From an uncultured beta proteobacterium (GTDB lineage: Bacteria; Pseudomonadota; Gammaproteobacteria; Burkholderiales; Usitatibacteraceae): DNA of 64,000 nt. A program made the position numbers and the translations under genes. Where the stretch lies: contig CAWIUI010000008.1 of NCBI GenBank assembly GCA_963839265.1, positions 97,235 to 161,234 of the forward strand, read 5' to 3'. The notes beneath the pieces are model-generated. The model was not told the origin of the DNA. It saw only the letters and a list, made by a program, of their open reading frames with translations, and did not search any database. Within the stretch, counting starts at the first letter, position 1; every line of letters starts with the position of its first letter. Shown here piece by piece: positions 3,078 to 24,945 of this stretch.

Positions 3078-3203
3078 CCCGAGCTTGCCGTAACTGTCTG
3101 TACATCTAGCAGGCTTGACCTGCGGGAACCGGGCCCGATGCATGACTGATTGTAGCCACTAAATATAGTGGACATCGGTACGCTGACCTGCGATGATCAG
3201 CGT

Positions 3204-5878: not shown

Positions 5879-6003
5879 CCGCTCCGCCTCGACGCAGCGT
5901 AACCAGCGTAGCCACGAACGGAGGTCCCCGCCAGGCCCAACCAGACGGCAAAACCCCAGGTCAGCACCCACAATTCCCTAGTAGAAGATCACGTAAGGAC
6001 GGC

Positions 6004-6339: not shown

Positions 6340-6377
6340 CTGACGTTCCGCACTTCTCGGTTGGGTTTTCCCGGTAA

Positions 6378-6743: not shown

Positions 6744-6841
6744 GGATGTTCTCCCGTGTCGTGCGGCGTGCCGGCTGGCGCGCGCCTGCCGTAAGTATAG
6801 ATACTTACGGTAGATACCGGGCTACCGTCAAGGAGGTGGCG

Positions 6842-8558
6842 ATGGACACGCCGGCGTTCACGCTGACCACCCAGCGTCTCGGCGCCCTGCCGCTGATCGG
6901 CTGCTTCGCGGCCCGGATGGGCCTGCCCCGGCTGCTGGATACCTGGGTCCCGGCTGATGATGCCCGGCTGGCGCTGGACCCCGCGGTGGTGATCGCGGTG
7001 ATGATCGCGAACCTGGCAGTAGAGCACCGGCCGCTGTACGCCCTGCGCGAGTGGGCCGCCGCCTACGAGCCGGCCCTGCTGGGGCTGGCCGCGGGGGAGG
7101 CGGAACTGCTCAACGACGACCGGGCCGGCCGGATGCTGGACCGGTTGTTCCATGCTGACCGGGGCAGCCTGCTCACCGAGCTGATGACGGGCGTGATCAG
7201 CGAGTTCGCCATCGACTGCTCGCGGCTGCACAACGACTCCACCTCCGTCAGCGTGCACGGCGCCTACCAGAACGCCGGCGGCCAGGACGTGGCCGGCACC
7301 CCGGCGCCGGCGATCACGTGGGGGCACTCCAAGGATTACCGGCCGGACCTGAAGCAGCTGGTGTTCATCCTGACTGTGACCGGGGACCACGCCGTGCCGG
7401 TCATCTACCGGCTGGCGGACGGCAACACCAATGACGACCCGACCCACATCCCCACCTGGGACGCGCTGGTCAAGCTGACCGGCGGCCCCGGCTTCCTGTA
7501 CGTCGCGGACTGCAAGCTCGCCTCGGCGGAGGCGATGGGCCACATCGACCGGGGCGGCGGCCGGTTCATCACCGTGCTGCCGCGCAGCCGCAAGGAAGAC
7601 GCCGCGTTCCGCGCCTGGATGCAGGACCACCAGCCGGACTGGGCCGAAGCTCACCGCGCGCCCGGCCGGATCGGCGAGCCGGACCAGGTCTGGTCCGCCT
7701 GCCAGGCGCCGTGGCCCTCCGCGGAGGGATACCGCGTGGTGTGGATCCACGACAGCGGCAAGCAGCTCCGCGACGCCGCCGCCCGCGCCCGCAAGATCGA
7801 GAAGGGCGTGCAGGCGATCGAGGATGACCTGGCCGGGCGGCTGTCCTCCCCGCGCACCCGGCTGCGCACCGCCGCCGCGGTCCACGTCGCCGCCGAGGCC
7901 GCCCTCGCCGACGCCGGCGCGGCCCGCTGGGTCCGCTTCACCGTCACCAGCAAGACCCGGGAGTCGTTCCGGCAGGACGGGCCCGGCCGGGCCCGCCACC
8001 ACTTACCGGCGCATCGAGAAGCAGTCCTTCGCGGTCACCTGCGACATCGACCACGACCAGGTCAGCTACGACGCGGCCAGCGACGGCTGCTGGCCGCTGA
8101 TCACCAACGACCGCGACATGACCACGGCCGGCGTGCTCGCCGCCTACCGGTACCAGCCGAACCTCGAGCGGCGCCACCACCTGCTCAAAGGCATCCAGGA
8201 CGCCGCGCCGGTCTGGATCAAGACCATCCCGCGCATCGAGGCCATCTTCTTGTGCCACTTCATCGCGCTGCTGATCAGCGCCCTGATCGAACGGCAGATC
8301 CGGATGGCGATGAAGGCGGCCGAGATCGCGAGGATCCCCATCTATCCCGAGCTGCGCGGCTGCGCCGCGCCCACCGCCGACCGGATCTTCGAGATCTTCG
8401 CCCACGTCTCCCGGCACGAGCTCCGCGACACCGCCGGCAACCTCATCCAGGTCTTCGAACCCGAGCTCACCGAGCTGCAGCTGAAGATCCTGGACCTCCT
8501 CGGCATCCCCGCCACCATCTACAGCAGAGCCGCCGAACCCCGGCCCGCCGTCGGCTAA
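6842..8558 (+). pseudogene. IS1634-family transposase (DUF4277 N-terminus), frameshifted near 7990
   Basis: AGGAGG RBS; LGALPLI, HNDSTS, GHSKDYRPDLKQ, YVADCKL; C-terminal half (YRYQPNLERRHHLLK) continues in another frame. Confidence 0.85.
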
Positions 8559-8596
8559 TCCCGGAGATAACCCAACCGAGAAGTGCGGAAGGTCAG

Positions 8597-9307
8597 GCTC
8601 AAGCTCGATCACGGGGGAGATTTTGGGATGATGCCGCTTCGAGCGGATCACCATGATCGTGCCGCAGGCCAGGGAAGCAAGAAGCAGGCCGATGAAGCCG
8701 ACCGAGCCCCACCCCAGGCCGGCGCCTTGACCAGCGCCAGCGCGACCAGGCCAACGGCCGCGGCGAGCAGCCCCGCGCCGATCAGGTCAGGCCGGCCGCT
8801 GGCCCGCTCGTCCTTGCTCTCGGGCACCACCTTGACGGCCAGCACCATCGCGGCCACCCCGACCGGCAGGTTCACCCAGAACACCCAGCGCCAGTCGATC
8901 TGCACCAGGGTGCCGCCGATCACCGGGCCGAGCGCCGCGCCGAGCGCGCCCAGCGCCGACCAGGTGCCCAGGGCCTTCGGCCGGGCGTCCGGCGGGACCG
9001 CGGCGAGCAGCAGCGACAGCGACGCGGGCACCATCGCCCCAGCGCCGGCCGCCTGGACGACCCGGGCCGCGATCAGCGCGGCCACGCCCGGCGCCAGCCC
9101 GCACAGCAGCGACCCGACGCTGAACACGGCCAGCCCGGCCACGAAGAACCGGCGCCGCCCGATCCGGTCGGCCCACCGCCCGGCCGGCACAAGCACGGCG
9201 GCGAACACGATCGTGTAGGCGTTGAGCACCCAGGACAGCGAGCTCAGGCTGGTGCCCGGGTACTGCTTGCCGATGGCCGGGAAGGCCAGGTTGACGATGA
9301 AAAGGTC
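8597..9307 (-). pseudogene. MFS transporter fragment 2 (DHA2/EmrB-QacA N-terminal half)
   Basis: DLFIVNLAFP, WVLNAY, GRWADRIGRRR motif A, WRWVFWVNLPVG; 1-bp deletion near 8718. Confidence 0.9.
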
Positions 9308-9864
9308 TCTGTTATCACCGTCTGCTCACCGCAAGGAGAGCGCCGTGACCAGTAACGACGATGCGAACCGCGAGCCCTACGACGTGCACGCGAAGTTGGA
9401 GGACCAGACGGGCGTGCTGGCCGTGGCCCTGGCGCAGGGGGAATTGCGGGACGACACCATGCCGCAGCCCGAGGTCCGCCGGGCGGCATCCATCGGGGTG
9501 GATGCGATCGACACCATGCTCGCCGCACTGCACGCGATGCGGGCCCGGCTGGTATCGGAGATCCGCGCCACCGACGACGCCGCGCCGCGCGAGCGGATGC
9601 GATGACCAAGGCTAACGGCCTGGCGTCCCGCCGGACATAGTTCCCGTGCCCGCGCAGCGTGACCACCAGGCCGCGCTCGCGCAGCAGGCCGATCGCCTGC
9701 CGCAGCGTGTTGTACGCAATGTCATACTCCGCTGCCAGCTCGCGCTCCGGGGGCAGCCGGGAACCCGGCGCCAGCTCCCCGGCCCGCACCCGCGCGGTGA
9801 GGTGATCCGCGACCTGGACATAGGCGAGCTGCAGCGGGTCGCGCGTGAACGGCGGCACAGCCAT
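9244..9864 (-). CDS. GntR-family winged-helix regulator (domain in first ~80 aa; true 3' end uncertain)
   Basis: AYVQVADHL...GSRLPPERELAAEYDIAYNTLRQAIGLLRERGLVVTLRGHGNYV. Confidence 0.8.
   Translation of the reverse strand: MAVPPFTRDPLQLAYVQVADHLTARVRAGELAPGSRLPPERELAAEYDIAYNTLRQAIGLLRERGLVVTLRGHGNYVRRDARPLALVIASARAARRRRWRGSPIPAGPASRAVRRAWCRSHPPRWMPPGGPRAAAWCRPAIPPAPGPRPARPSGPPTSRARRRARGSHRRYWSRRSPCGEQTVITETFSSSTWPSRPSASSTRAPA
9293..9320 (-). other. Hybrid att site at left end of the integrated element (P arm + GA core + B' arm)
   Basis: Minus strand reads CGGTGATAACAGA-GA-CCTTTTCATCGTC; the right arm is MFS coding sequence. Confidence 0.85.
9345..9605 (+). CDS. Hypothetical protein
   Basis: AAGGAG RBS before GTG; 86 aa, helical character. 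Confidence 0.55.
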   Translation: MTSNDDANREPYDVHAKLEDQTGVLAVALAQGELRDDTMPQPEVRRAASIGVDAIDTMLAALHAMRARLVSEIRATDDAAPRERMR

Positions 9865-9959
9865 AACAAGCACGCTATCGGTCCACTGACCAGCAGGGAT
9901 ACCGCACAGGCTCCCGTGTGCCTTAGCAAGCTCGCTATAGCAGTCGTAGCATTAGGCAC

Positions 9960-10214
9960 ATGAACGGTGACTATGCAGCCGACCTGGCCAGCCTGCGCTA
10001 CCACTGGGGCAGCGCCTACCTCATCGAGCACCCCGAGCCCGACGTCTGGATCGCGGTCCGGCGGGATGACCACGCCACGCTGCGCGCGGACAGCCCGGAG
10101 GCCCTGCGCGAGAAGATCGTCGCCGACTACACCGCTCACCCGGTGAGCAGGTCGGTGGCCCCCGGTACGGACCGGCCGGAGACGCCGAGCTGCCGGTTCC
10201 TGCCCGAGGCCTGA
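9960..10214 (+). CDS. Small hypothetical protein divergent from gntR
   Basis: 84 aa, LRYHWGSAY...WIAVRRDD; plausible composition. Confidence 0.6.
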   Translation: MNGDYAADLASLRYHWGSAYLIEHPEPDVWIAVRRDDHATLRADSPEALREKIVADYTAHPVSRSVAPGTDRPETPSCRFLPEA

Positions 10215-10795
10215 CGGCGAGGGCCAGGCCGAAGTGAGGACGGCCCTAGCGTGGTTGTGTAGAAATTCCTGGTAGGGCGGCGTGTCGGGTACTCGTGCTA
10301 TCGCACGATCGTGCTAACCTTGTCAATGTAAATAATCATCACTGGCCAGAGCGGGACGGCCGGAACCGGCAGTCCGAACCGCCCCGCCCTAGCTGTCACA
10401 CGTGCCGCGCGACGAGGTCCACCTTCAGTAAGACTCGTAGCTGGACACATGCGGTCGGCGGTCGCGGGTTCGTCACGTCACTGTGACTAGCCCCGGCCGT
10501 CACCACTCCAGCAATGGCCAGGCTCACGATCACCTGGACCCAGCCGGACACGCTCGGGTTCTGTTTCTTTCTGCCCATATTCACCTCCTTCCGCTATGCA
10601 CGGCACCCGGCTTGGTGCGCGATCGCAGCACCCAGACGGGCAGGAGGTAACCGAAGCGGGACCGGCGTAGGTCCTAGCAGTAAAAGTAACGGAGCCCGGT
10701 CGGATAGCCACGGAGGCACGCCGGGCGAGTCGGATGCATCTCTTTCACCGTCTGCGGAGGCGCGTGTTCTATCCAGGTCGTTTGGATGGTGACCT

Positions 10796-11161
10796 ATGAG
10801 CGATCGGCCCGGTGCCGATCGTGATCGGCTCCTCATTGCGGAGCTGCACGGCACGGCGGGCCACCACGCTAAGTGGCGCGAGCTGACCGAGGCCGAGGAG
10901 GCCGCTGCGGTGGCCGGGCTGCGGGAGCTTGCGGCCGGGCGCGTCGACCTGCTGGCCGAGGTCGCCGGGATCCTGGAAGGCGCGTCGGAAGGCGAACTGA
11001 ACGAGCCGATCAAGCGGCAAGCCGCGCAGCTGTGCCGCAAGGCAGGCGCCGACCCGAACGCGATACCCGCATGGGTAGAAGAAGGGCGCCGCCGCCGGGC
11101 GAATGCCGGCAAGCCGCCGTTCATCGAGGCGCGTTACCGGCGCCCTGGAGCCCGTGCGTAG
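10796..11161 (+). CDS. Hypothetical protein
   Basis: 121 aa helical ORF with GC3-rich codons. Confidence 0.55.
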   Translation: MSDRPGADRDRLLIAELHGTAGHHAKWRELTEAEEAAAVAGLRELAAGRVDLLAEVAGILEGASEGELNEPIKRQAAQLCRKAGADPNAIPAWVEEGRRRRANAGKPPFIEARYRRPGARA

Positions 11162-11330
11162 AGGGTCGCCGGGCGGGTCACAGGTACCGGGCCCGAGCGC
11201 CGCGCATTTTCCGGGTCGGCCCCTCCAGCGGGCCTGACGGCGAGGGCCAGGCCAGAGGCCAGGCCCTATCGGCGCGCGGCGAACTAACGGTAGCGACGCC
11301 ACGGAACGCCTGCAAGGTGCTGAAGTCCAG

Positions 11331-11566
11331 TCACGGGGACGTAATGCTTCCTGTAGGCGTCCATTTACCCAATGTGAAGGTAGGGTGCCAGAAGCTGAGG
11401 GGCCAGGTCAAGATCGAGATGAAGTACTGGATCCAGCTATGAAGCGTCGCCAGAGTGGCAGTAGTCGGCGGAATATGGGGGGTGCTGTGTTGTAGAAGAT
11501 ACCGATCAGAATGTAGATGGCAATGAGCAACCCAGTTGTGCTGAAAAGGGTTTTCAGGAATTTCAC
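11331..11566 (-). pseudogene. Small membrane protein, copy 2 (frameshift in G6 tract)
   Basis: GGAGGTG RBS; MKFLKTLFSTTGLLIAIYILIGIFYNTAPP then frame lost; paralog has G7; span is 236 nt. Confidence 0.75.
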
Positions 11567-11772
11567 CTCAGCTCACCTCCTGCGTGGACGCTGGAACTGG
11601 TGCAGATGAGTGACCGCCTTGCGGGCAGTAGACGCGGAACGTGCGGACGTAGGATGTCGTGTTCGTCACCAAGATTAAACACCATTCCAACATAGTCGTC
11701 TCGCAGGTCCTGCATGAGGGAGGAGACATGATCAGCAGGGTCGACCTCCAGGCTGCCTGCAAGATGCGGAAG

Positions 11773-12054
11773 TCACGGGAAGATAATGCTTCCTGTAGGT
11801 ATCCACTTACCCACTGAGAAGGTAGGGTGCCAGAAGCTGAGGGGCCAGGTCAAGATCGAGATGAAGTACTGGATCCAGCTATGAAGCGATGTGAAACTGG
11901 CAGCAGTCGACGGAAAATGGGGGGGCGCTGTGTTGTAGAAGATACCGATCAGAAAGTAGATCAGGATGATAAACCCAATTGGGCTGAAAATAAGGGCTAT
12001 ATAAGCACCGATTCCCCGAGATGTGGTCCCGCCCCTGATGAAGCTGAAAGCCAC
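11773..12054 (-). CDS. Small membrane protein, copy 1
   Basis: GGAGGTG RBS; 93 aa with hydrophobic segments; near-identical 3' half to copy 2. Confidence 0.75.
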   Translation of the reverse strand: MAFSFIRGGTTSRGIGAYIALIFSPIGFIILIYFLIGIFYNTAPPHFPSTAASFTSLHSWIQYFISILTWPLSFWHPTFSVGKWIPTGSIIFP

Positions 12055-12456
12055 CTCTGCTCACCTCCTGTGTGGACGCTGAAAGTGGTAAGGATGAGTG
12101 ACCGCTTTTGCGGTCAGTACCCCGGATACGGCGATCGTGGTGCGTAACACCACGAAGCCGTCAAGCTGGCCGCTTACGCGCGTCGGGCAGGCGGCAACCT
12201 GAGGGCGCAGGATGTCGTGCTCGTCCCAAGATTTGAACACCATTCCAACATAGCGGTTCTTCGCCATGAACCGCGGATCGTGTCCCGTGACACGCCGGTG
12301 AGGTAACAGGTGCATAGCCCGGCTGGCTTTTTTGACCACCTTAGGTGTCACCGCCCGCTTGACCGCACGGCCGGGATGGACCGCACGACGCACACTGCGC
12401 GGGATAAACAGCCTTGATGGGAAGCCCACGGACGAAAGGATAGCCCTCGGCCGGGC

Positions 12457-12609
12457 CTAGACCGGTTCCCACCGCCAGCCGTCGTTGTTTTCACAGATGA
12501 TCTTTTTGCCGTCTCCCGCCACCCCGAACGCCCAGCGCGCGCTGACCAGCGGCAGCCTGATCCGGCAGCGGACACAGGTCACCTCGTCGCGCAGCGGTAG
12601 TAGTTTCAC
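12457..12609 (-). CDS. Small Cys-containing protein
   Basis: GTG start overlapping the upstream stop (GTGA); CVRC and ICEN motifs. Confidence 0.45.
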   Translation of the reverse strand: MKLLPLRDEVTCVRCRIRLPLVSARWAFGVAGDGKKIICENNDGWRWEPV

Positions 12610-13004
12610 GGCCCTACCACCGGCATTCGGGGTGCCGATGCTGACGGGCGACCGCCGCTGGGCCGTGACATCGTGGGCGGTGCTGGCTGCTGGGAACGGA
12701 GGCGGCTCAGGCGGTGGCTCAGGCGGCGAAGCCGCTTGACTCGCTGTTCCGCAGCTGGCAGCGGCGGCAGGCCTGGCGACACTGGCGTCCCGATGATGCC
12801 GGCGAGGATGGACTTGCAGGGGCCGCAGGCGAACAGGTAGCCCAGGTAGGAGCCGCTGCTGTCGGCGGTCGGCGCCGCGTGCTGGTACGCGGTGCCGCAT
12901 CTGACGCAAGAGAGGTTCCAGGTGGGGGTATTCCCGCCGCCGGACGCGGCGGGTGCCGATGACGGACCCAGGCAGTAGTCCAGGATCGCGCGGGCGGCGG
13001 TCAC
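12606..13004 (-). CDS. Zn-ribbon-like hypothetical protein
   Basis: CVRC...CGPC; GTGA coupling with the upstream HTH gene. Confidence 0.55.
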   Translation of the reverse strand: MTAARAILDYCLGPSSAPAASGGGNTPTWNLSCVRCGTAYQHAAPTADSSGSYLGYLFACGPCKSILAGIIGTPVSPGLPPLPAAEQRVKRLRRLSHRLSRLRSQQPAPPTMSRPSGGRPSASAPRMPVVGP

Positions 13005-13291
13005 TGCGGGGCACCGGCCTGCTGCGTGGCCAGCGCGAGCACGCCGGCCTTGAACTGCCGCAGCTGCTCCAGCTCGATCTTCATCGCGGCGACATCGGCC
13101 TTGATGCCGGTGTAGACGCCGTGGTTCTCCCGCTCGAAGGAGCGGTAGACGGTGGTGCGGGCGACGCCGAAGTACCGCGCCACCTGGGACAGCGACGCGC
13201 CCGACTCGATCAGCTCGTGCGCCTGCGCCACCTTCTCGGGCGGCAGCGCCAGCTCCCGCCCGCGCCGCCGTGCTGCATCTGACAGCTCCAT
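13001..13291 (-). CDS. Stand-alone resolvase-type (Hin/HTH_7-like) HTH protein with coiled-coil tail
   Basis: GRELALPPEKVAQAHELIESGASLSQVARYFGVARTTVYRSF. Confidence 0.8.
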   Translation of the reverse strand: MELSDAARRRGRELALPPEKVAQAHELIESGASLSQVARYFGVARTTVYRSFERENHGVYTGIKADVAAMKIELEQLRQFKAGVLALATQQAGAPQ

Positions 13292-13536
13292 GGTGCCCCC
13301 TTGGTCCTAGCCATGCTGCCTACCTCAAGTATAACGAACACCTGTATGATGTAGATAGGCAGCATGCCCGTGGACCCGAACAAGGCTACGTAAATGTGTC
13401 AGACAACTGAATAAGGCGAGACGGAAGAACCCCCACCGAGGTAGGGGTTCAACCGATAAAGCTCAGGGCGGCGGCCAGCACTCCGCGCGCCTGACAACAG
13501 CACCATCCAACCGAGCTACCGAGAGAGGACGCTCTA

Positions 13537-14658
13537 ATGACATCTTATCAAGCGCAGCAGGTCGAACGCGAGTCTGATTTAAGCGGTCGAACCGGGGCGA
13601 ACGGCACCAGTGCCGGGTCCAACGGCGACGGCGGGCGCACCGGGGCATCGTCCAACGGCACCAGTGCCGGGTCCAACGGCGACGGGACGGACGCCGCCAA
13701 CGAGAACCCCTACAACGGCGACGGCCGGCGCCAGGAAGAACGCTGGATCGAGCCGTTCGTGAGGCTGGACCAGCTCAGCGACGAGCCCGTCGAGATGCGC
13801 ATTCCGGGCCTGCTGACCACGCGCGGCACCGTGCTGTTCAGCGGGTACCGGAAATGCGGGAAGACCACGCTTGACTTCCACCTGGTCAACGCGCTGTCCC
13901 AGGGCGGCAACTTCCTCGGGCGGCCCTGCACGCGGCTGACCGGCCCCCTGGTCTACGTGAACCTGGATATGACGGAGAACATGGTCCGCCAGTACGCCAC
14001 GGAGCAGGGTTGCCCGCTGGACAGCCCGGACATCCTCATCCAGAACTACCAGGGCATCGCCAGCAGGTTCCAGCTGGGCGACCCGTCGTGGCGCTACGAC
14101 TACGCCCAGATGCTCTATGACCAGCGTGCCGCCGCGCTGACGGTCGACCCGATCCACCCGCTGTTAATCGGCGTGTACGCCGACTCCAACAACAACGACG
14201 AGTCACGAGCCACCCTGGAGTACCTCGGCGAGGTCGCGCACCAGGCCAAGCTCAAGCACCTGATCATCATCGACCACACGGGGCACGCGGACAAGGGGCG
14301 GACACGCGGGGCCAGCGGCAAGGAGGACTGGGCCGATATGCTCTGGAACCTGCAGGGCGCCGAGGGCCAGCCCACCCGCACGCTCAACGTCATCGGGCGC
14401 GGCGTCATCGGGTCGGCGAGCTACCTGATGGGCGACGACCACCAGCTGGTGCCGTGCGATACGCCAGCGTCCCGCCAGTCGCCGCAGGAGGCGCAGCTGA
14501 CCGAGCGGGTGGCGATGATCAAGAAGATGCGCGAGCAGAACCCGGACATCACCCAGGCCGAGGTCGTCGAGATCACCAAGATCCCCAAGAGCGCCGTCAG
14601 CCGCCTCTGGGCACGGACCTTGGCGGACCGATCCGATACCGAACCCACCAGATTCTAG
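13537..14658 (+). CDS. RecA/RepA-type AAA helicase (AAA_25-like) with C-terminal HTH; putative Rep
   Basis: Walker A GYRKCGKTT, Walker B LTVDP, IIDHTGH and RGASG-EDWAD motifs; C-terminal ITQAEVVEITKIPKSAVSR. Confidence 0.8.
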   Translation: MTSYQAQQVERESDLSGRTGANGTSAGSNGDGGRTGASSNGTSAGSNGDGTDAANENPYNGDGRRQEERWIEPFVRLDQLSDEPVEMRIPGLLTTRGTVLFSGYRKCGKTTLDFHLVNALSQGGNFLGRPCTRLTGPLVYVNLDMTENMVRQYATEQGCPLDSPDILIQNYQGIASRFQLGDPSWRYDYAQMLYDQRAAALTVDPIHPLLIGVYADSNNNDESRATLEYLGEVAHQAKLKHLIIIDHTGHADKGRTRGASGKEDWADMLWNLQGAEGQPTRTLNVIGRGVIGSASYLMGDDHQLVPCDTPASRQSPQEAQLTERVAMIKKMREQNPDITQAEVVEITKIPKSAVSRLWARTLADRSDTEPTRF

Positions 14659-14664
14659 TGGGAG

Positions 14665-14778
14665 GTCCCCCAGTTGTCCCGGCGTCCCACCCGCCGTCCC
14701 GGCCGGGACGGGAATTGGGTGCAAGCTGTCCCGCCGTCCCGTCCCACCCACCACCCTTGGTGGTGGGACGGGCGGGAC
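14665..14778. repeat. GTCCC/GGGAC iteron-like cluster (putative origin)
   Basis: Seven GTCCC and three GGGAC copies in 114 bp plus an imperfect hairpin, starting 7 bp after the helicase stop. Confidence 0.7.
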
Positions 14779-14877
14779 AAGCACCTGGGAGAGCAACTGG
14801 GAGAAGTAAGGGCCAGTGGCGATGAACTCCACAGGGCTGGCAGAGAGCTGGCCAAGACCGAGCCGAAGGAGAACCCG

Positions 14878-15123
14878 ATGAGGAACAAGACCACGACCAA
14901 GAACCGCCCTACCCTGACCGCGTACCAGCACAGGCTGGCTGGCGTGGCGCTGGGCCACGGGTACGCCTGGCGTCCCGCGCTCGGCCCGGAAGAGACACGC
15001 TGGGCCACCGTCTACGCGGCGATCCTCCGCTACGCGGTGGAGCCGCTGTCCCACCCGCCCGGCTTACGCCGTGGCTGCCCGATCTGCGCGCACGAGCTGG
15101 CCGCGCTCGACGAGCAGACATAG
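14878..15123 (+). CDS. Small hypothetical protein
   Basis: AAGGAG RBS before ATG (MRNKTTT); C-terminal CPIC-H. Confidence 0.5.
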   Translation: MRNKTTTKNRPTLTAYQHRLAGVALGHGYAWRPALGPEETRWATVYAAILRYAVEPLSHPPGLRRGCPICAHELAALDEQT

Positions 15124-15267
15124 GGAGGTTCGATAGTGAACGTCCCCCCTGTCCGGAGCCAGCGCAGCGGCACCGACGTCTGGGATGATGGAGGACAAGA
15201 CGTATTGGAGGTGCAGCTCATGAGCGCTGTCTGGCGGCAGGGTGCTGACATCGGACCCGGCCGCGAC

Positions 15268-15771
15268 TTACGGCGGCACCAGCAGCAGCGGGGGCTCTAT
15301 CCCGGCGCGCACCCCGGCTCCGCCGAGCTTGACGCGCAGCTCGCTGGTGATCAGCCAGCTGTACGGCGTGATGTACAGCCCGCCGAGCTTGTCGTCCCGC
15401 AGCAGGTCTACGACCGTCCGCGAGCCGGTGACGTGCAGCATCATCGAGGTGGTGCCCAGCTCGTGGGCAAGACCCGTGCCGACCGGCGGCAGCAGCCAGT
15501 GCCGCAGCCAGATCTGGTCGTTCACCGCGATCATCAGGGGGGTGGGGCGCAGATTCGCCCAGTTCATACCGATCGTGGTGCCGCTGACTATCTCGGCCGC
15601 GCATACTTCCTCGACGGCCAGCCGAGCCCTCCAGTCGGCCGCGCTTGTGCCTGCGGTTGCGGGCAACCGCTCATCGGCGGCCGTGATGATCGTCGTTACC
15701 TCAACGCCGCGCACCGCGCCGGAGCCTCCTGGCGGCGCCGGCAGCACGCAGCTTCGCTCAGCTAAGGTCAA
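15268..15771 (-). CDS. Hypothetical protein
   Basis: 167 aa ORF with globular composition in its C-terminal two-thirds. Confidence 0.4.
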   Translation of the reverse strand: MTLAERSCVLPAPPGGSGAVRGVEVTTIITAADERLPATAGTSAADWRARLAVEEVCAAEIVSGTTIGMNWANLRPTPLMIAVNDQIWLRHWLLPPVGTGLAHELGTTSMMLHVTGSRTVVDLLRDDKLGGLYITPYSWLITSELRVKLGGAGVRAGIEPPLLLVPP

Positions 15772-15980
15772 CTACTACAGCGTGTAGTCCTACGCGTAAG
15801 CCCTGGAAGGTCCGCGCCGCCGCCGTCCTCGATCACGCCCAGGGCGTCGAACGCAGTTGCCAGGGCGACGTGGTGAGCACTGGTAGCAGTTCACCACCGG
15901 GTACCCGTCGACCACGACGACGGGCACCGAGAACACCTACGGCTCGCCGCCCGCTGAGCAACCTAGCGCCTTACCCGTAC

Positions 15981-16934
15981 CTAGCCCGCCTCGGCTGGCC
16001 CGGAGCCGGTGCCCGCCCGCTGCAGCCGGCCAGAATGGGCGTCTAGTTTCCAGCCCTCCGGAACCGGCGCGTCGGCGGGCCACTTGACGCCCGTGAGATT
16101 CGCGCCCACGAGGTACGCGCCCTTGACGTCTGCGCCGGTGAGGTCGACGCCGGCGAGGTTCGCACTCATGAGGCCCGCACCAGTGAGATCCGCGCTCACG
16201 AGATGCGCGCCCGCGAGATCTGCGCCCACTAGGTTCGCACCGGTGAGGTTCGCGCGGAGGAGATTCGCGCTTGCCAGGTTCGCGCGGAGGAGAATCGCAC
16301 AAATGAGCTTCGCGCCCCGGAGATCGAGTGGCCGGATGTCGCGCTTTGCATCGCGGCGTCCAACTACGGTCACGGCGGCCTGAACGTCGGGCCGGATCGA
16401 TGGGTCCCGCTTTTGGTCTCCGGTGCCTGGCGGCGTCCGCTGCTCGTCTGAGTGCTCGCGAATGAACGCGGTAAGTACTTCCATCACGGTCGGATGGTCT
16501 CTTGCGGAGTCGCGGGCGACGCGCTCCAGCGCGTAGATGCCGCCTATCCGCACGTCGAGCTTGTCCGAGCCGAGCTGCTCAATGGCCTTGGCGTAACGAT
16601 CGGTCACCTGCCCCTGCTCGGTCAGCTCATGGGTGCGCCGCTGCCACTGGTCGGCCTGTTCCGAGTTACGCCGCAACAGGCTGAAATTCAGGGCAGTGAA
16701 GACCAGCGCGGCTGCGGCAGCCAGGCCCGCGCCCAGCGTCAGCAGCCGGCCCCTGGCGTTATCCACGGCTGTCTCGTGCAGCGCACCCGTGGCTGAGCCG
16801 ACGTCCTGGCGCGCCAGCCAGTCCGCCAGCGGCATGAACGCCGCCCACACGACTGCCAGCCCGAACACGACAGCGGTGATCCCGCCTATCGTCCATCGGA
16901 TCCCCTGCGGCCATGCCGCCCAGCGCTTTAGCAC
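15981..16934 (-). CDS. Membrane-anchored pentapeptide-repeat protein
   Basis: Two TM segments, [29 protein letters not shown], then A(N/D)LxG repeats. Confidence 0.9.
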
Positions 16935-17308
16935 GTGAAGACGTTAGGGGGAATGAGCCTGTGCCCGCTCGCTGGTGCGGACATGAGGTAGCGAAATCGA
17001 TACCCAGGCGGATGCCCGGTGAAGGCCAAGCCGTCCGCGCCGTATGCCCTGCAGTATGTCGGGGCCGCCCGACCCGGTGACATAGCCGGGCCGGGAGCCT
17101 AGTCCGCTGGTACGTCCGGACCGTTCTTTAACGGTTGCTCTGCCGGGTAGCGCCGCGCCGAGGCTGCCAACTAGGGTTCCCGCCCAATCTGCCCGTCATC
17201 ACGATCTGTCACCGGCATCTGCGCTGGTCACTGACATGTCTGTCGCGCCTCGTCCTCCTTGCCGAGCACTGAATTAGGGCATAGGCTAGTTGGTAGGAGG
17301 AGAACATA

Positions 17309-17884
17309 ATGACCAGCATCGACGTCGCGGTCTGGTACCGCGTCAGTGGCAGCGACCAGACGACAGACAACCAGATCCCGGACGTGCAGCGGTTCTGCCA
17401 GCACCACGGGTACACGGTCACCAGGACCTACGAGATCAGCGACTCGGCCTGGAAGCAGGGGCCTGAGTACCGCAAGGCGGTCCAGCGGGCGCTGGACGAC
17501 GCGCAGGAGGGTCACTTCGCTGTGCTGGTGGTCTGGGCGCTTGACCGCATCGTCAGGTCGGGCAGCGAGGCAGGCAAGTCCGCGTCCGAGGAGGCGCTGT
17601 CGCTGTTCCGCCAGTTCGGCCAGCGGCACGTGTCCATCCTGTCCGTGAAAGAGCCGTGGCTCACGGCCTCGCCCGAGATCCAGGCCGTGATGATCAGCTT
17701 CGCGGCCTGGGTCGCCGAGCAGGAGAGCCGCCGCCGGTCCGAGCGCGTGCGTGCAGGGATGGCCAGGGCGAAGGCCGAGGGCAAGACGGTGGGCGGCAGG
17801 CAGCGCGGAGCCAAGGACCGCAAGCCGAGGTCACGGGCGGGGTACGCCGCCGAGCAGGCCCGGCGGAAGGCGGTCTCGTCATGA
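17309..17884 (+). CDS. Small serine recombinase (resolvase catalytic domain)
   Basis: AGGAGG RBS; YRVS (catalytic Ser), VWALDRIVR and E--RRSERVRAGM motifs. Confidence 0.9.
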   Translation: MTSIDVAVWYRVSGSDQTTDNQIPDVQRFCQHHGYTVTRTYEISDSAWKQGPEYRKAVQRALDDAQEGHFAVLVVWALDRIVRSGSEAGKSASEEALSLFRQFGQRHVSILSVKEPWLTASPEIQAVMISFAAWVAEQESRRRSERVRAGMARAKAEGKTVGGRQRGAKDRKPRSRAGYAAEQARRKAVSS

Positions 17885-18054
17885 TGCGCCAGCGGACCTA
17901 CCGCCTGATCGTGGTCGAGGTGGATGGCGAGGTCACCGATGAGGGTTGCACGCCGATCGAGCTGGAGGTGGCCACCTACCTCACCGAGTCGTGCTGCGCC
18001 CACGATGCGGTGCTGGCCGTAGCCGACCGCCTGGCTGATGAGCACGCCTCCTAG
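17881..18054 (+). CDS. Small hypothetical protein coupled to the recombinase
   Basis: ATGA overlap; MMRQRTYRLIVVEVDGEV. Confidence 0.45.
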   Translation: MMRQRTYRLIVVEVDGEVTDEGCTPIELEVATYLTESCCAHDAVLAVADRLADEHAS

Positions 18055-18803
18055 AACATGCTCCTGGTAGGGGTAGAGCGGAAGCCGTGGTTCCGGCTGA
18101 CCGTCTCGGCCACCGGGCTTCCCAGCTCAGGCACCCTGATCGTCTCCACGTTCGACGCCCTGAGCGCGATTCTGCGGCTCCCGGAAGCGCCAGGGTCCGG
18201 GGGGACTATGCCCACCTGCGCTCCTGGCGCTCCTACGCCCCTCTACAGCGCCGTACAGCACCGTTCCAGCCGCGCCGTCCCGTAGCTGAGTTCGACTTTA
18301 TCCGCCCAGCAGCGGAAGGCCCCATCCCTTTAATTGCCTGGCATAAAAGCGGCTGCCCAGGGTGGTTGGGCGGCCCGCTGAAAATGCGACCGCACGAGGT
18401 GCAGAAAACAGGTACCGGAGAAGTTGAGCCAGCCCAGCCGCGCGCAGTGCCGCCTGACAGCCTCGGGTGTGCCCGTCTCAGCGGTTCCTCCGGGTGCGGT
18501 ACGTCCATGCACCTGCACCTGCATGTAGGCCGCGCGCTCGCACCAGTCCTTCTTGGCCAGCTCGGAGACGTAGCAGGGCCTCCAGATGAACGTCTCGCAG
18601 CAGATGCATCTCCGGGTGACCAGCGGGTTGATCAGTAGATCATCGGCACCGCTGCGCTCTTGGGCACACGCACATCCGATGCTCTCCTACAGCGCGCCGG
18701 TGATCCGGTTACCCAACTGGCTGGTTAACTGGCCAAGACGCGGGTTGGTGACGTAGTTGAGCCTGGCACTTCATGAACCAGATGTCGCTGGCGCACGAGG
18801 GAT

Positions 18804-19250
18804 TCAGCGGACGAGCGCCTGTCGCCGGCTGGCCGTCGCCGACCAGCGCACGATGCCGGCCTCGGCGAGCTGCTGCAGCGCCGCCGGCACATGCTGCTTG
18901 GCGATCCCGGTCCGTGCCGTGACCATCGCCTGCGTCACCGCCGCGCCGGGCTGCAGGTCGCCGCGCTTCACCAGCTCCGCGACCGTGCGCACGGCGTCGT
19001 CCACCATTATCTGCCGGGCGTCACGCTTCCTGGTATCGTGGCCGCGCCGGATATGGTCAGCCAGGTGCTCGGCTGCGGTCTTGCCGCCGACCGTGATGTG
19101 CTCGGCCCCGCAGTGTGGGCAACGGGCACGTTCGGCGACGTCAGGCGAAGATAACCGCTCGGTACGCCACGGCGAGCTGCCCTTTAATGCGGTGATGCGA
19201 CCGTCGACCAGGCTGTGTTGCGGGGTGTAGCCGCTGGTCCTCAACGCCAC
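18804..19250 (-). CDS. C2H2 Zn-finger + winged-helix protein
   Basis: CPHC...HLADH; C-terminal GntR-like VTQAMVTARTGIAKQHVPAALQQLAEAGIV. Confidence 0.6.
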   Translation of the reverse strand: MALRTSGYTPQHSLVDGRITALKGSSPWRTERLSSPDVAERARCPHCGAEHITVGGKTAAEHLADHIRRGHDTRKRDARQIMVDDAVRTVAELVKRGDLQPGAAVTQAMVTARTGIAKQHVPAALQQLAEAGIVRWSATASRRQALVR

Positions 19251-19593
19251 TCGTCTTCGGTGGCCGGGTCGCGCCGGTAGCCGGGCGGCACCTGACGGGA
19301 TGAGTCGCGCAGCTGCCCGCTGAACACCTGCTTGTTGGCCACACGCGGGTCGGCGTAACCAGGCAGCCCATCGAACATCCCCTGGCTGCTCGCCGTGGTA
19401 TGTCCCGGCCTGCGCGGTGGCCCGGCTGGCGGCGCGTCGTGTACGCCAAGCTCGTCGCGATGCGCCACGAAGTCAGCCATGCTCATCGTCGCGAGCTGGT
19501 CCGCGTCGAGCTGGCTGGCGTCGGCCTGCTGCGGGACCGCCGGACCGGCAGCGGAAGCGATCTTCTCCTGCCACCAGGTGGACCTCGACGCGT

Positions 19594-20685
19594 TTAGCGC
19601 CGACTGGGGTATCCACTTAACCGGACTGGAAACTGCAGCTGGATTTCGGCGGTCCGCCACGGGCGGTCCGCCGCTGGGCGCTCGAGGCTCGGAGGGTGTC
19701 CCGTGCCGCCCTCGGCTCGCTTCGCACGGCGCGGCTTTTTGCTGGCGAGCAGATCCACGTACCGGACTGGCTCGTGGCCGGCGGCTAGCTGCAGGACCCG
19801 GTAGAACACCATGCCCCGGCTGGCCGATCGGCGGCGGTTGAACCGGAAGACGAACTCGTTGAGATAGGCGGGCAGGTGCGCGGCGTCAACCGAGCCCTGG
19901 TGGGTGCCCAGCAGCCACCGCTTGCACAGCGAGGCGACCCGATGGACTCCGGGCAGCAGGCTGTCCGGGTCATCCCCAGCGGCGCGGGCCGCTTTCTGGT
20001 TGATGGGCCGGTGCTGATATCCCTTGCCGCTGATGGCCCGGTAAGCGGCCCAGCCGTCAGTGATGACCGTCGCCCCTGGCTGGACGTTCTCGGTGACGAA
20101 CGTGCCCAGCGTGTCACCGCTGGCGTCATCGAGCGGCGCCATCCGGCAGCGGCCGATGCCCTTCGGCTCGCGAACCTCCACGGCGATCCCGGTGAGGACC
20201 TTCTTGCCGCGCTGCCGCCCGCCCCGCAAACCGGGCTCCTCGCCGCCGATGTAGGTCTCATCGACCTCGACCGTGCCGGACAGCCGGTCACGGCCCGGCC
20301 GCACCAGCGCTGACCGGAGCCGGTGCAGCATTGCCCACGCCGTCTGATAGGAGCCGATCTCCAGCACCCGCTGCAGGTGCTGGGCGGAGATGCCGTCCTT
20401 GGCGGTCGCGAACAGCCAGCAGGCGTGGAACCACACCGTCAGCGGTGTGCGCGTCTTGTCGAAGATAGTCCCAGCCGTCACCGAGGTCCGTGATCCGCAG
20501 CCGCCGCACTTGACCCGGCCGTCACCCAGCCGCCAGCCTCCCGCATGACCGCAGTCCGGGCAAACGAATCCGCCCGGCCAGCGCAGCCACTCAAGGTAGT
20601 CCAGGCAGTCGTCGTCAGTGCCGTACCAGGAAAGGAACTCGCCGGTCGATCTCGGGTAGTGCGCGCCCGCGACCGGTGTCGTCAT
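19594..20685 (-). CDS. IS1595-family transposase
   Basis: N-terminal Zn ribbon CPDC/CGGC; VEVDETYIGG, ITDGWAAY and YLNEFVFRFNRR motifs. Confidence 0.95.
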   Translation of the reverse strand: MTTPVAGAHYPRSTGEFLSWYGTDDDCLDYLEWLRWPGGFVCPDCGHAGGWRLGDGRVKCGGCGSRTSVTAGTIFDKTRTPLTVWFHACWLFATAKDGISAQHLQRVLEIGSYQTAWAMLHRLRSALVRPGRDRLSGTVEVDETYIGGEEPGLRGGRQRGKKVLTGIAVEVREPKGIGRCRMAPLDDASGDTLGTFVTENVQPGATVITDGWAAYRAISGKGYQHRPINQKAARAAGDDPDSLLPGVHRVASLCKRWLLGTHQGSVDAAHLPAYLNEFVFRFNRRRSASRGMVFYRVLQLAAGHEPVRYVDLLASKKPRRAKRAEGGTGHPPSLERPAADRPWRTAEIQLQFPVRLSGYPSRR

Positions 20686-20720
20686 GCGACGAGTCTAGTC
20701 CGGTTAAGTGGATACCCCAG
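19604..20720 (-). mobile_element. IS1595-family insertion sequence
   Basis: 24-bp perfect IRs CTGGGGTATCCACTTAACCGGACT; 8-bp TSD AGCGCCGA (19596-19603, 20721-20728). Confidence 0.95.
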
Positions 20721-20963
20721 AGCGCCGATACCCGCTCGGCTTGTCTGGCGCGGGATTCGAGCTGGTCGAGTGCGCGGGCCTGGTCTTGCTCGGTCATTGT
20801 CGTCTCTTCCTTGTCATAACCTGGAGGAGGAATTCGAGACCCTTGCGATTCCCGAATTCCTCCCGCTTCCCTTACGGCCGGAACTGGCGGCCTTGTATCC
20901 ATTATCCCATGAAATTCCTGATATACTTAAGTGTGTATAGAAGAGCATTATCAGGAGAGGGCA

Positions 20964-21116
20964 ATGGCGAGGTCAATCGCTAATTTCAGCCTCGATCCGG
21001 AGCTATTGGCGTGGTTCCAGGGCCAGGCGCAGCTGGAAGGCCGCCCGATGAGCCGCATCGTGGCCAGGCTGCTCACCGAGTACCGGGCTAAGCAGGCGGA
21101 GAAGTCCAGCGCATGA
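20964..21116 (+). CDS. Ribbon-helix-helix (CopG-like) protein
   Basis: 50 aa: NFSLDPELLAWFQGQAQLEGRPMSRIVARLLTEY; CAGGAG RBS. Confidence 0.7.
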   Translation: MARSIANFSLDPELLAWFQGQAQLEGRPMSRIVARLLTEYRAKQAEKSSA

Positions 21117-21739
21117 GCCTCAGCGAGCCGATCGCGTTAGACCTTGAGCTGCGTGCCTTCGTCTACCGGCTGTGGAACGCGGACGGCGCTTGCATGTATG
21201 TCGGGCAGCACCGTGGTATCCATCCAGCTGTCCGCATCAACCAGCATCGGAGCCAGCCCTGGTTCGGCGAGGTTGATCATGCTGACTTCGTAGAGATCCT
21301 GGACGGTGACCTGGATATCGCCGAGAAGCAGATGATCGCCGACTTGGAGCCGCGCTACAACAATGGCGGCTATTACGGGCTCCATCCCCGTGCCCCGCTG
21401 CCGCCGGAGGATGTGCGTGCACCGCATGATGACGAGGATCTGCTATTTCGCGATTTCCTGCTGCGTCTCCTGGAGGAGAACCTGGGCGCTGACCTCTGGG
21501 CGCTCGTCAAGGCCCGCAGTGAAGCAGCTGGCCGACGAGCGGAGCGCGTGATGACTGACTCCGTACTCGACCCCCGCACCCACCCGGTGAGCTTCGACAT
21601 CACCCAGCCGCCGCAGCAGGTCATCGCGCGGGCGCTGGCTGAGCCCGCCGCTGACCGCCTGCGACAGCGCCTTGATGATCTTGAGCACCGCCTGGATATC
21701 CTGCAGGGCATCCTGGCCGATCTCCTGGAGGACAGTTAG
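21113..21739 (+). CDS. GIY-YIG-domain protein with C-terminal coiled coil
   Basis: FVYRLW...MYVGQ...RINQH...AEKQMI...PRYN; ATGA overlap with the RHH gene. Confidence 0.75.
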   Translation: MSLSEPIALDLELRAFVYRLWNADGACMYVGQHRGIHPAVRINQHRSQPWFGEVDHADFVEILDGDLDIAEKQMIADLEPRYNNGGYYGLHPRAPLPPEDVRAPHDDEDLLFRDFLLRLLEENLGADLWALVKARSEAAGRRAERVMTDSVLDPRTHPVSFDITQPPQQVIARALAEPAADRLRQRLDDLEHRLDILQGILADLLEDS

Positions 21740-21914
21740 ATATGGCAGTCACCCCGTTCGACCCGACCGTCTCGACGCTGCTCATCCCGAACCAGCTCCA
21801 GCCCGTTAACGGTGTCTCGGACGCGACTTTCCTCAACCAGTTGCTGCCCTACGCCTCACGCATCAGCCCGATTACCCGAGCGCAGCAGCAGGTGCAGCAG
21901 GAAGGACAGCCGGA

Positions 21915-22286
21915 ATGACGAAGACCGGGAACAAGAACTTCGCGCAGGGCCAGGCCGTGTCGGAGCGCGAGACGGGAGCCGGGTGGGGATCTCCCGCTGA
22001 TAGCGCCAGCCCGCTGCCGCTCGATCAGCATCACACCCGCCGCAGTTACGTCGGTTTCGGCGAGATGCCGCGCGATGCCCGGCGTGAGCTGGCCAAGGCG
22101 GGTGATGAGCTGGAGCGCACCGTGATCAACCTGTCTGCGGCTCAGCTGGTCCACGGCGCGACCAGGGGCCTGCCCGGCCAACATGATGAGGTGGACAGCC
22201 CCGGCCGCACGTCCGGCAAGATTCCGCGCCGTGCATACGTTCCTGGGAGCCGCATACGCGCGGCCAGCAGCCGAGGGCCGGGATGA
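21915..22286 (+). CDS. Hypothetical protein
   Basis: GGAAGGA RBS; first gene of a coupled run of ORFs. Confidence 0.5.
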   Translation: MTKTGNKNFAQGQAVSERETGAGWGSPADSASPLPLDQHHTRRSYVGFGEMPRDARRELAKAGDELERTVINLSAAQLVHGATRGLPGQHDEVDSPGRTSGKIPRRAYVPGSRIRAASSRGPG

Positions 22287-22424
22287 TCCATTGGACCGCT
22301 ATGTAGGTGTTCGCGCGCTGCTGCTGCCGTCGTCGTCAGCGCCCCGCAGCGGCTTCGACCGCACGCATGAGCTGAGCCATCACGACGTGGCCGGCACCAC
22401 CATCATCAACGCGCTGGAGCAGTC

Positions 22425-22697
22425 ATGAACGACGACGACCGCTGGCAGACGCAGCGGGTGGCTGATCACCGCGTGCGGGAAGATGACAGGTTAGCCAGCG
22501 CCCGTGACCAGGCTCGGTTCCACGGCCCGCCGCCGCACACGGTCGCGCTGTTCTCCGAGCGCATGTTCACGCCCAATGCCCGCGAATCCCAGCAGCTCGG
22601 CACGGTAAGCGGCGAAACCGCGCTCGGCCTGCCGCCCGCGCCGATCACCGTGGGACGGGCACGACCGAGTGACTACGACGAGGAGGACTACCGGTGA
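22425..22697 (+). CDS. Hypothetical protein
   Basis: GGAG RBS; ATGA and GTGA overlaps at its two ends. Confidence 0.55.
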   Translation: MNDDDRWQTQRVADHRVREDDRLASARDQARFHGPPPHTVALFSERMFTPNARESQQLGTVSGETALGLPPAPITVGRARPSDYDEEDYR

Positions 22698-23161
22698 CAG
22701 TTTCACTCTTGGACGCCGAGGGCCGCCCGATATCCGCATTCGGCTCCCATGCGTCCTGGAATCAGGGCGCGGTGACCAATGCCGCGTCGTTCAGCGAGAC
22801 GGGCGCAGGCAGTACCAGCGGCAGCACCGGCACGGGCGCGGCCAAGATCTCGCCGACCAAGGCGGGCTCGACCAAGGCCCTGGGGTACCAGGATCTGGCC
22901 GCTCAGAGCCCTGGCGCGCCCCACCAGCCGCCCCTGGAGGTGGCCCCGGCACAGATCACGCCGCCGCGCACCAACCCCGATGAGCAGCCCGGCAGCAACC
23001 CGGTGGGCGATGCGCTCAAGGCGGTCGCGCAGCACTACGGGCCGACGGAGCAGCCCGGCCGTAACGACGAATTCCAGGTCGGGCGGACCAGCAGCCTCCC
23101 AGGTGCGGGCGAAGCAGCCGGCATAGCCGAAGACCTGGCCGACGTCGCGGAGGTGGCGTAG
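22694..23161 (+). CDS. Hypothetical low-complexity protein
   Basis: GAGGAGG RBS; GTGA overlap; rich in G/S/T/A/P. Confidence 0.55.
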   Translation: MTVSLLDAEGRPISAFGSHASWNQGAVTNAASFSETGAGSTSGSTGTGAAKISPTKAGSTKALGYQDLAAQSPGAPHQPPLEVAPAQITPPRTNPDEQPGSNPVGDALKAVAQHYGPTEQPGRNDEFQVGRTSSLPGAGEAAGIAEDLADVAEVA

Positions 23162-23430
23162 CCGTGCAGCTGAACGCGACTGAGCCGTTCGACATTAACG
23201 GCGCGGTCGGGCAGCTGGCTCATTTCGCCAAGGGCATCGTGTCCGGCCGTCCGGGTCATACTCTTCCAGCTGCCGCAGGCGGTGCTGGCGAGGTGGCCGA
23301 GGAGGCTGCCCCGTTACTGCTGGCCTGAGCGTCGCTGTAGCCTGTTCTGCGCGCCGGGTACCCAATGCACGCTGATCGCCGTAGAACCGCCTTCAGGTGC
23401 CACTACAGCGCGTCCAGCGTGATCTAGGCG

Positions 23431-24809
23431 TCAGGCCGGGTACGGGAACACCCCGTGGTCCGCGCCGTCGATGATCACCCGGACGCCCTTGGTCGCGCCG
23501 GGATCAGCCGGCGTGGCCTTCTCCACCCGGATGTCACGGGTCTTGAGGTACTCCCGCTTGCCGTCGTCGTCTAGGCCGTAGAAGTGCTCGCCGACCGTCA
23601 TCCCGGTATCGCGGTCCACTCCCAGTGGCCCGCCGTGGCCTCCTCCTCGTTCTTGCGCCGGTACTCCGCCAGCGTGGCCTGCAGCGCGGGCAGGTTCTCG
23701 AACCGCTCGGCCTCCACGGCTTCGCGCAGGTCCTGCTTCACGTCGGCTATCTCGGCATCCCAGTTGATGCCCGTGGCCCATTCGCGGGTCCGGTAAGGCT
23801 CCTCGCTGGTCAGGAACACCCGCGTGATCACGATGGTCTCGGCCTGCGCCAGCGGGACCATGTTGCCGCATCCCTTCCGCTGCGGTCCCGAGCCGAAGCA
23901 CCGGTAGTAGTACCGCCCGCCGCCCGTGCTGCCGCTCTTGATCCGGTACATCGGCGAGCCGCAGCGGGCGCACCGGAGGCCGGCGAGCATCGGCGGGTCA
24001 AGCGTCGCGGGTCCGCGATGCGGCCGGGTCTTCAGCGCCTGGTTGGCGCGGTCGAACACGTCGGCCGGCACTACCGCCTCGCACCGTTGGATGGTCACGC
24101 CCTGGCGGTTCTGCAGCCGGCCGGCGTACGCCCTGGTGCGGATCGTCCAGCGGACGCTGCTCTCATTCCAGTGCGCCTTGCCCCGTGGCGACGGGATGCC
24201 CTCGGAATCCAGCCAGGCGGCGATCGTCCGCAGCGAGTCGCCGGCGATACACCGGGCGAATATGTGCGGGACCACCCGGCGGCACAGGGCGGTCGGCACG
24301 ATCCGCTTGTGGTGCTTGGCGCCCTCGATCGTGAACCCCCACGGGACGTTGCTGTACACCGCGCCGTTCCGGTGCATGGTGTCGAGCGCGATCTTGACCT
24401 GCTCAGACAGGTGGACCGAGTGCTGGTGGGCGATGACCGCGCCGAGGGCCGTGACGGCCTCGCCTGACAGGTCCTCGGTGCCGAGCAGCGGCTCCTTCAC
24501 CGACTCGATCCGCCCGCCGGCGTCCTTGACCTGCCGGAGCAGCCGGAACAGCGCCTCGGGACCACGCCGCTCGGCGCGGTCGCTGTGCCAGCACACCAGC
24601 ACCCTGATCGTGCCCTCGCGCATGTCGTTCAGCATCTCGTCCAGCGTGGCCTGCTGCTCGCCCTTGCTGGCGCTCTTGTCGTTCAGCTCGTACCGCCGCG
24701 TCACCAGGTAGCCACGCTCCTGGCAGTGCCGCTCGACGTCGGGAACCTGGCTGGCCTCGTTCTGGTCGGCCGTGGAAACCCGGACCCAGGTGCCTGCTGG
24801 CTCGTTCAT
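23431..24809 (-). CDS. Large serine recombinase (integrase), apparent frameshift near 23612
   Basis: WVRVS, WHSDRAER, recombinase domain, Zn ribbon CARC...YRC...GC and coiled coil; tail (DTGMTVGEHF...) is in another frame; start is 48 bp from the att core. Confidence 0.9.
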
Positions 24810-24843
24810 CGTCCTCGCCCTGCCCTTCACCTGTTAGCATACT

Positions 24844-24871
24844 CGGTGAGAACAGGTCCAGGCTGGACATG
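24844..24871 (-). other. Hybrid att site at right end of the integrated element (B arm + GA core + P' arm)
   Basis: Minus strand reads ATGTCCAGCCTG-GA-CCTGTTCTCACCG. Confidence 0.85.
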
Positions 24872-24945
24872 AAGATGGCCAGCGAAAGCACGCCGATCAC
24901 GGCAGTGACCCGGCGAGCGTCCGGCAGCGGGGAAGGGGAGCTCAC
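24857..24945 (-). pseudogene. MFS transporter fragment 1 (N-terminal 29 codons)
   Basis: AGGAGG RBS, GTG start, MSSPSPLPDARRVTAVIGVLSLAIFMSSLD; continues at 9305 as LFIVNLAFP. Confidence 0.85.

Follow-up and report, generated by a model that had tools for sequence, protein, structure and literature searches.

A probable integrative island of an uncultured actinobacterium, splitting a transporter gene, and the attachment sites of its Bxb1-like serine integrase

Here we describe an island in a 64,000-nucleotide stretch of the metagenomic contig CAWIUI010000008.1 (contig C8; the whole stretch is referred to below as the window, and positions are those of the window unless a contig or locus is named). 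The 15.55-kb segment at positions 9306-24858 is very probably an integrative island of an uncultured actinobacterium, inserted by a Bxb1-like large serine integrase that is encoded 47 nt from one of its ends. Cutting out 15,551 bp rejoins the reading frame of a gene for a DHA2-type efflux protein of the major facilitator superfamily (MFS), which the insertion splits base-exactly and without a target-site duplication. On the minus strand, the attL junction reads CAGCCTG-GA-CCTGTTCTCACCG, with its core at 24858-24857, and the attR junction reads CGGTGATAACAGA-GA-CCTTTTCATC, with its core at 9307-9306; read further out, they are ...CTGGCCATCTTCATGTCCAGCCTG-GA-CCTGTTCTCACCGAGTATGCTAACAGG... and ...GCGGTGAGCAGACGGTGATAACAGA-GA-CCTTTTCATCGTCAACCTGGCC..., respectively. 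The ATG of the integrase gene (24809) lies 47 nt beyond the attL core, and the distance of 48 bp given in the original prediction, which had been made from the letters of this DNA, is right to one base. The two junctions have the five bases GACCT in common (24858-24854 at attL).

On the attL side, the MFS gene is represented by a minus-strand fragment (24859-24945, or 24945-24857 with the core) that starts with a GTG at 24945, runs for 29 codons to a Leu, translates as VSSPSPLPDARRVTAVIGVLSLAIFMSSL and is in frame once the element is removed; the final 16 nt of this fragment, CTTCATGTCCAGCCTG, make up the B arm of attL. The core GA at 24857-24858 starts the following Asp codon, and the P' arm of attP occupies 24830-24856 on the integrase side (CCTGTTCTCACCGAGTATGCTAACAGG), including a distal GCTAAC motif that in relatives lies 16-18 nt away from the core. 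At the opposite end, the P arm (9308-9332, minus strand, ..GCGGTGAGCAGACGGTGATAACAGA) meets the second core at 9306-9307, past which the MFS gene resumes on the same strand (8601-9305, or 9307-8601 with the core) with the B' arm CCTTTTCATCGTCAAC, followed by residues ~31-241, a stretch that is frameshifted near 8700; this part is 78% identical to the ortholog at locus L013 over residues 3-226. When the flanks are joined (24857 to 9305), a single frame results, VSSPSPLPDARRVTAVIGVLSLAIFMSSL-D-LFIVNLAFPAIGKQYPG..., with the open reading VSSPSPLPDARRVTAVIGVLSLAIFMSSLDLFIVNLAFPAIGKQYPGTSLSSLSWVLNAY..., and the rebuilt gene contains the motif FMSSLDLFIVNLAFP. Within the FMSSL-D-LFIVN signature that marks helix 1 of this efflux gene, the Asp codon begins with the core GA. 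The best family of the L013 ortholog is TIGR00711 (DHA2/EmrB), with 201 bits (E 3e-59) against a curated cut-off of 230 bits for an ortholog whose N-terminus is truncated.

Rejoining the outer arms gives attB as CTTCATGTCCAGCCTG-GA-CCTTTTCATCGTCAAC, and rejoining the inner arms gives attP as CGGTGATAACAGA-GA-CCTGTTCTCACCG, whose inverted-repeat arms agree at 11 of 13 positions, a symmetry reached or exceeded at just 0.011% of all window positions. The junction strings, the symmetric attP and the restoration of the MFS codons by attB had all been read in this way in the original prediction, and all three stand. It should be noted that GA was picked as the crossover by arm symmetry and by comparison with relatives; the window locus alone permits any dinucleotide inside GACCT.

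The rebuilt attB also exists uninterrupted in nature. Two soil metagenome contigs (L050 and L094) are identical to it over 44 bp, and near-identical empty sites are present in two actinobacterial metagenome-assembled genomes (MAGs; G061 and G062) that carry related integrases elsewhere. Uninterrupted TTCATGNNNNNNCTGGACCTNTTCATCGTCAACCTGGC was found in more than 120 metagenome contigs among the matches listed, and all 79 of the sites that could be extracted encode a VLSLA(V/I)FMSSLDLFIVNLAFP-type sequence. The specific 38-nt attB pattern was present in none of 301 evenly drawn genomes of the class to which G065, a Streptosporangiaceae MAG, belongs. The attB site is restricted by lineage, occurring in some soil lineages and not in the whole class. 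Related attB sites had been predicted to be widespread; this holds for those soil lineages, but the idea of an attB spread across the class was dropped on the count of zero in 301.

The host deserves separate consideration. The tetranucleotide profile breaks abruptly at window position ~38,600 (~135,900 on C8): the first 136 kb of C8, which include the island, correlate with the rest of the bin at 0.83-0.88, and the part downstream at 0.99. In C8, a fragment of actinobacterial origin has probably been joined to a different genome, making the contig a chimera. As the first 136 kb are foreign to the bin, the host of the island is an actinobacterium outside the bin genome. For the same reason, a search of 60 relatives of the bin, which yielded no empty site, is uninformative.

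The enzyme itself is encoded on the minus strand at 23598-24809, and comprises residues 1-403 before a premature stop brought about by a frameshift. Its domains follow the order Resolvase, Recombinase and Zn_ribbon_recom (PF00239, 2e-18; PF07508, 2.6e-13; PF13408, 8e-9). Among 22 homologs, R10 and S12 (in WVRVST) are almost invariant, and R78, E80, R81 and R82 as well as the zinc-ribbon cysteines C280, C283, C304 and C314 are invariant. Among intact homologs, P0002 is the closest (77% identity), and its AlphaFold model (pLDDT 83) matches the Bxb1 integrase 9iu2_A over its full length (E 1.9e-25, 485 aligned columns) and likewise matches the PhiC31 and LI integrase complexes. In this model, a coiled coil (353-390, helices 353-368 and 372-390) lies between paired strands, an observation made on P0002 as the homolog of the window protein. 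The window enzyme is a large serine recombinase distant from any characterised one: the nearest PDB entry by sequence has an E value of 3e-9 and the closest phage integrase in the searched collection is at most 26% identical. It was fairly called uncharacterised.

A broader pattern emerges from the relatives. Ten of the 17 homologous integrase loci examined (~25% to 77% identity) adjoin the FMxxL-D motif of MFS genes, in either orientation, and the junction core in those ten loci is always GA in the MFS sense; the possibility raised with the original prediction, that homologs would sit at unrelated boundaries, is not what these loci display. At L013, which encodes P0002, the element lies in the orthologous MFS gene (82% amino-acid identity) in the opposite orientation, the integrase strand reading GAACAGG-TC-TCTGCTCGCACCG, which in the MFS sense is the same GA. 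The integrase of L147 (P0015, 65%) adjoins LD-GSIVIIALP of another MFS gene (GGGACTA-GA-CGGATCC), and those of L018 and L020 (39-40%) adjoin FMxxLD with a single junction each. Both junctions are available for L022 (41%, 7.4 kb), where GACA is common to the junctions and attP reads TGATAG-14-GA-14-CTGTCA; for L017 (45%, 5.3 kb), where attP reads TTGAC-16-GA-16-GTCAA and the GA of the integrase-side junction is lost (2 nt short); and for L025 (8.3 kb), with the junctions CCCTG-GA-TACTT and TTGTA-GA-CGGCT, in which GA constitutes the only shared bases, and attP TTAAC-15-GA-15-GTTAA. The last of these belongs, together with L021 and L024, to a second subfamily (~25-44% identity over part of the protein) that uses the same codon. 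The distal attP motifs are equidistant from GA in L022, L017 and L025. The orientation of the elements agrees with whether the attP core reads GA on the strand of the integrase gene or on the opposite one, and this constant polarity is as expected from the rule that orientation is determined by the core dinucleotide alone.

Seven of the 17 loci are without the MFS junction, and target specificity therefore drifts within the integrase family. A sister subclade (L015:9880-9990 and the P0012 contig; 60-65% identity) is located immediately ahead of a SARP/AfsR-type regulator gene, by its start, and not in an MFS gene, which is a recent target switch, and at L153 the integrase adjoins a fragment of an amino-acid permease gene. 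In a small tree, based on a small sample, MFS-targeting enzymes occupy an outgroup clade, a basal branch and two inner clades, a pattern that would fit an old specificity followed by several target switches. The general proposal would be that a deep actinobacterial serine-integrase lineage, down to ~25% identity, has retained a single target, namely the GA with which the Asp codon opens in the signature of helix 1 of DHA2-type MFS genes, for small GntR-bearing islands whose orientation follows the strand of the attP core; we consider the case for and against this proposal to be evenly balanced.

Some details of individual loci are worth recording. The integrase-side junction of L017 (9925-9945) reads CTC-T-TTCTTC where CTC-GAC-TTCTTC is expected, which breaks the MFS frame; the site is either locked or misassembled. 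At L013 (9960-9975), the element arm provides an in-frame ATG and eight codons (MLALGASR) in front of what is left of the MFS gene, and the gene caller predicts a fusion protein of 554 aa. A second junction of the L013/L150 element was not found within 20 kb, in a region packed with transposase genes. L016, taken up as a possible free attP, was dropped, as its arms are asymmetric by eye.

What can be read directly from the DNA is the pair of junctions, the frame that their removal restores and the empty site in nature; the recombination chemistry, the exact cut at GA by the window enzyme and its activity are what we infer. Based on what is known of the family, one integrase dimer would bind attP (..CGGTGATAACAGA-GA-CCTGTTCTCACCG..GCTAAC) and another attB (CTTCATGTCCAGCCTG-GA-CCTTTTCATCGTCAAC), the two dimers would pair, each of the four strands would be cut at the central GA, and rotation of the half-complex and religation would yield attL and attR without target duplication. 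Integration at this GA splits the MFS gene after codon 29. The att sites may be right and the staggered cut may nevertheless fall at AC, CC or CT inside GACCT. The window junctions are identical over these five bases, so that sequence alone cannot fix the cut, and related enzymes need not share a cut position. However, GA is the only centre about which the 13-nt arms are symmetric, L022 narrows the core to GA, AC or CA and L025 to GA, and the distal attP motifs of three relatives are centred on GA, which makes a cut elsewhere in GACCT improbable. More improbable still is that the insertion is the work of another agent, for instance a transposase or the small serine recombinase encoded at 17309-17884, or that the junctions are assembly artefacts. 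A second serine recombinase gene and an IS1595-family transposase gene do lie inside the element, and the contig is chimeric elsewhere; but L017 (5.3 kb), L022 and L025, without those genes, have the same junction next to the same type of integrase, and a base-exact split without target-site duplication restores a frame that is found uninterrupted in nature.

The state of the integrase requires more caution, as an intact reading frame is what the window copy lacks. The frameshift after residue 403, already implied in the original prediction, results from two extra bases (ACC-GC-GAT at ~23612-23608), and homologs are 445-500 aa long compared with 403 aa here. An out-of-frame remnant (23431-23613, minus strand, ..DTGMTVGEHFYGLDDDGKREYLKTRDIRVEK..VRVIIDGADHGVFPYPA) still recognisably encodes the last ~58 residues, and can be aligned to the C-terminal ends of P0003 and P0012. 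In terms of the model, the protein is cut off from the equivalent of strand 396-405 onwards, which closes the zinc domain, and judging from the model the frameshift would cost the integrase one zinc-domain strand and a C-terminal subdomain of ~60 aa. The frameshift could be an assembly error, in which case the element would still be working and excisable: the contig comes from a metagenome assembly and is demonstrably chimeric, both att sites are undamaged, and the out-of-frame C-terminus is still well conserved. Nonetheless, the frameshift lies outside any homopolymer (ACCGCGATACC), real decay surrounds it (the MFS gene is broken into four, and the element harbours a transposase gene), and the independent homolog P0019 (L152) is frameshifted within ~10 nt of the same place, which may mean a recurrent real event. 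Altogether, we regard a working element as rather unlikely.

P0019 (L152:9300-9330, 64% identity) comes from a separate metagenome and has its own frameshift at most ~10 nt from that of the window (23600-23620). The frameshifted ends read ..GHWTIRTPG* versus ..GHWEWTAIPG*, and among 120 homologs only these two are truncated there. A programmed frameshift was considered and rejected, as a slippery sequence is absent at both sites.

Returning to the reading of the segment as an island inserted by its own Bxb1-like integrase, several points weigh against it or against parts of it. The integrase is frameshifted, so the att pair may be no longer in use; the chimeric nature of the contig weakens trust in single-base details such as this frameshift; and, from the window enzyme alone, the crossover could be AC, CC or CT within GACCT. 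Furthermore, seven of the 17 related integrases are without an MFS junction and have a SARP regulator gene, an amino-acid-permease fragment or other neighbours (L023 is unclear), and no recombination directionality factor, on which excision by such enzymes depends, was identified.

The window copy is probably an immobile fossil. We consider it probably dead because the integrase is frameshifted, an IS1595-family transposase gene (19594-20685, minus strand, from the Pfam scan) lies within the element, and the MFS gene is cut at two further places, leaving it in four fragments (24945-24857, 9307-8601, 6334-6002 and 3053-2862). The third fragment (6002-6334, minus strand) corresponds to ortholog residues ~243-353 and is preceded by a 2.3-kb insertion (6335-8600) with an open reading frame (ORF) of 659 aa that is IS4/IS1634-like by eye only. 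The fourth (2862-3053, minus strand; ortholog residues ~360-423) is preceded by an insertion (3054-6001) with two transposase-like genes (3168-4991 and 5079-5873), whose family was likewise assigned by eye only. One of the inserted transposase-like genes is itself frameshifted, and the region 2862-9307 has the appearance of an insertion-sequence graveyard.

Regarding its gene content, the element best fits the description of a small integrative island that may be mobilisable. A GntR-type winged-helix regulator gene (9620-9873, minus strand) forms, together with the integrase gene, the sole module common to the related elements (L013, L016, L017 and L022). An AAA_25 (RepA-like) ATPase encoded on the plus strand (13537-14658) is probably the replication protein of the element, and the small serine recombinase (17309-17884, plus strand), which consists of the catalytic domain alone, is cargo and not the integrase; further genes encode a free HTH_7 protein, a pentapeptide protein and a GIY-YIG-like protein. 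The GntR frame is open without a stop through the attR junction into the MFS gene (9244-9873, minus strand), and a small plus-strand gene (9345-9605), favoured by codon-position GC and conserved in L016, overlaps it; another small conserved ORF (9960-10214) also neighbours the GntR gene. Pfam and PHROGs searches revealed no capsid, tail, terminase or lysis genes in the element, and the matches were limited to DNA-binding, primase/helicase-like and endonuclease families. An FtsK/SpoIIIE-type transfer protein was not detected by the same searches, and, as several ORFs are without a family match, a divergent one is possible. No relatives of the element were found in viral contigs, and a plasmid search for an unintegrated form returned matches of 23-30% identity only.

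It is established practice to derive att sites from junctions; the window pair is real and well supported, and the family pattern is modestly interesting. The understanding of serine integrases is unchanged by this element. What it adds is an att pair whose core dinucleotide is defined, from a clade of integrases without a characterised member, a clade that repeatedly uses one conserved transporter motif, and hence raw material for integration vectors for soil actinomycetes and for the study of how integrases retain or switch their targets. As a genome-engineering tool, the use suggested with the original prediction, the window copy is a poor candidate, being probably a fossil, whereas an intact relative such as P0002 is a better basis. 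If a single landing site has indeed been kept, the family would be a set of probably orthogonal enzymes, natural landing pads would be present in some poorly tractable soil actinomycetes, and the loci would form a natural record of integrase-target co-divergence.

The element can be compared with three known systems. Like integrative elements of the pSAM2/SLP1 type (actinomycete integrative and conjugative elements, AICEs), a minority of which use serine recombinases (PMC3429521), it is a small actinobacterial island with an integrase gene at one end, and it likewise encodes a replication ATPase and a regulator of the GntR type, comparable to KorSA; it differs in that an FtsK/SpoIIIE-type transfer gene was not found and in that its target is a protein-coding gene instead of a tRNA gene. 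Durrant et al. 2022 (PMC10083194) mined large serine recombinases and read att pairs off the element boundaries, and reported that distantly related enzymes converge on one conserved in-gene site (a Mg-chelatase-like gene and a prolyl isomerase gene). The logic by which we rebuilt attB and attP is the same, as is the convergence on one gene site, here in MFS genes, but an MFS target is unmentioned in the main text of that study, where the word "transporter" occurs 0 times. We found no paper describing an integrase that targets MFS helix 1, within a literature coverage that is incomplete. In the case of Bxb1, the two enzymes are only ~21-23% identical; ours belongs to a small non-phage island, its target is MFS helix 1 with the core GA, and the window copy is frameshifted. 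Bxb1 is a mycobacteriophage whose attB lies inside groEL1, with a non-palindromic central dinucleotide. The two systems agree in the order of their parts (catalytic domain, recombinase domain, zinc ribbon with coiled coil, and C-terminal part), Bxb1 integrase being the best full-length structural match, and both integrate within coding sequence that is conserved, at a non-palindromic core of 2 bp flanked in attP by imperfectly inverted arms.

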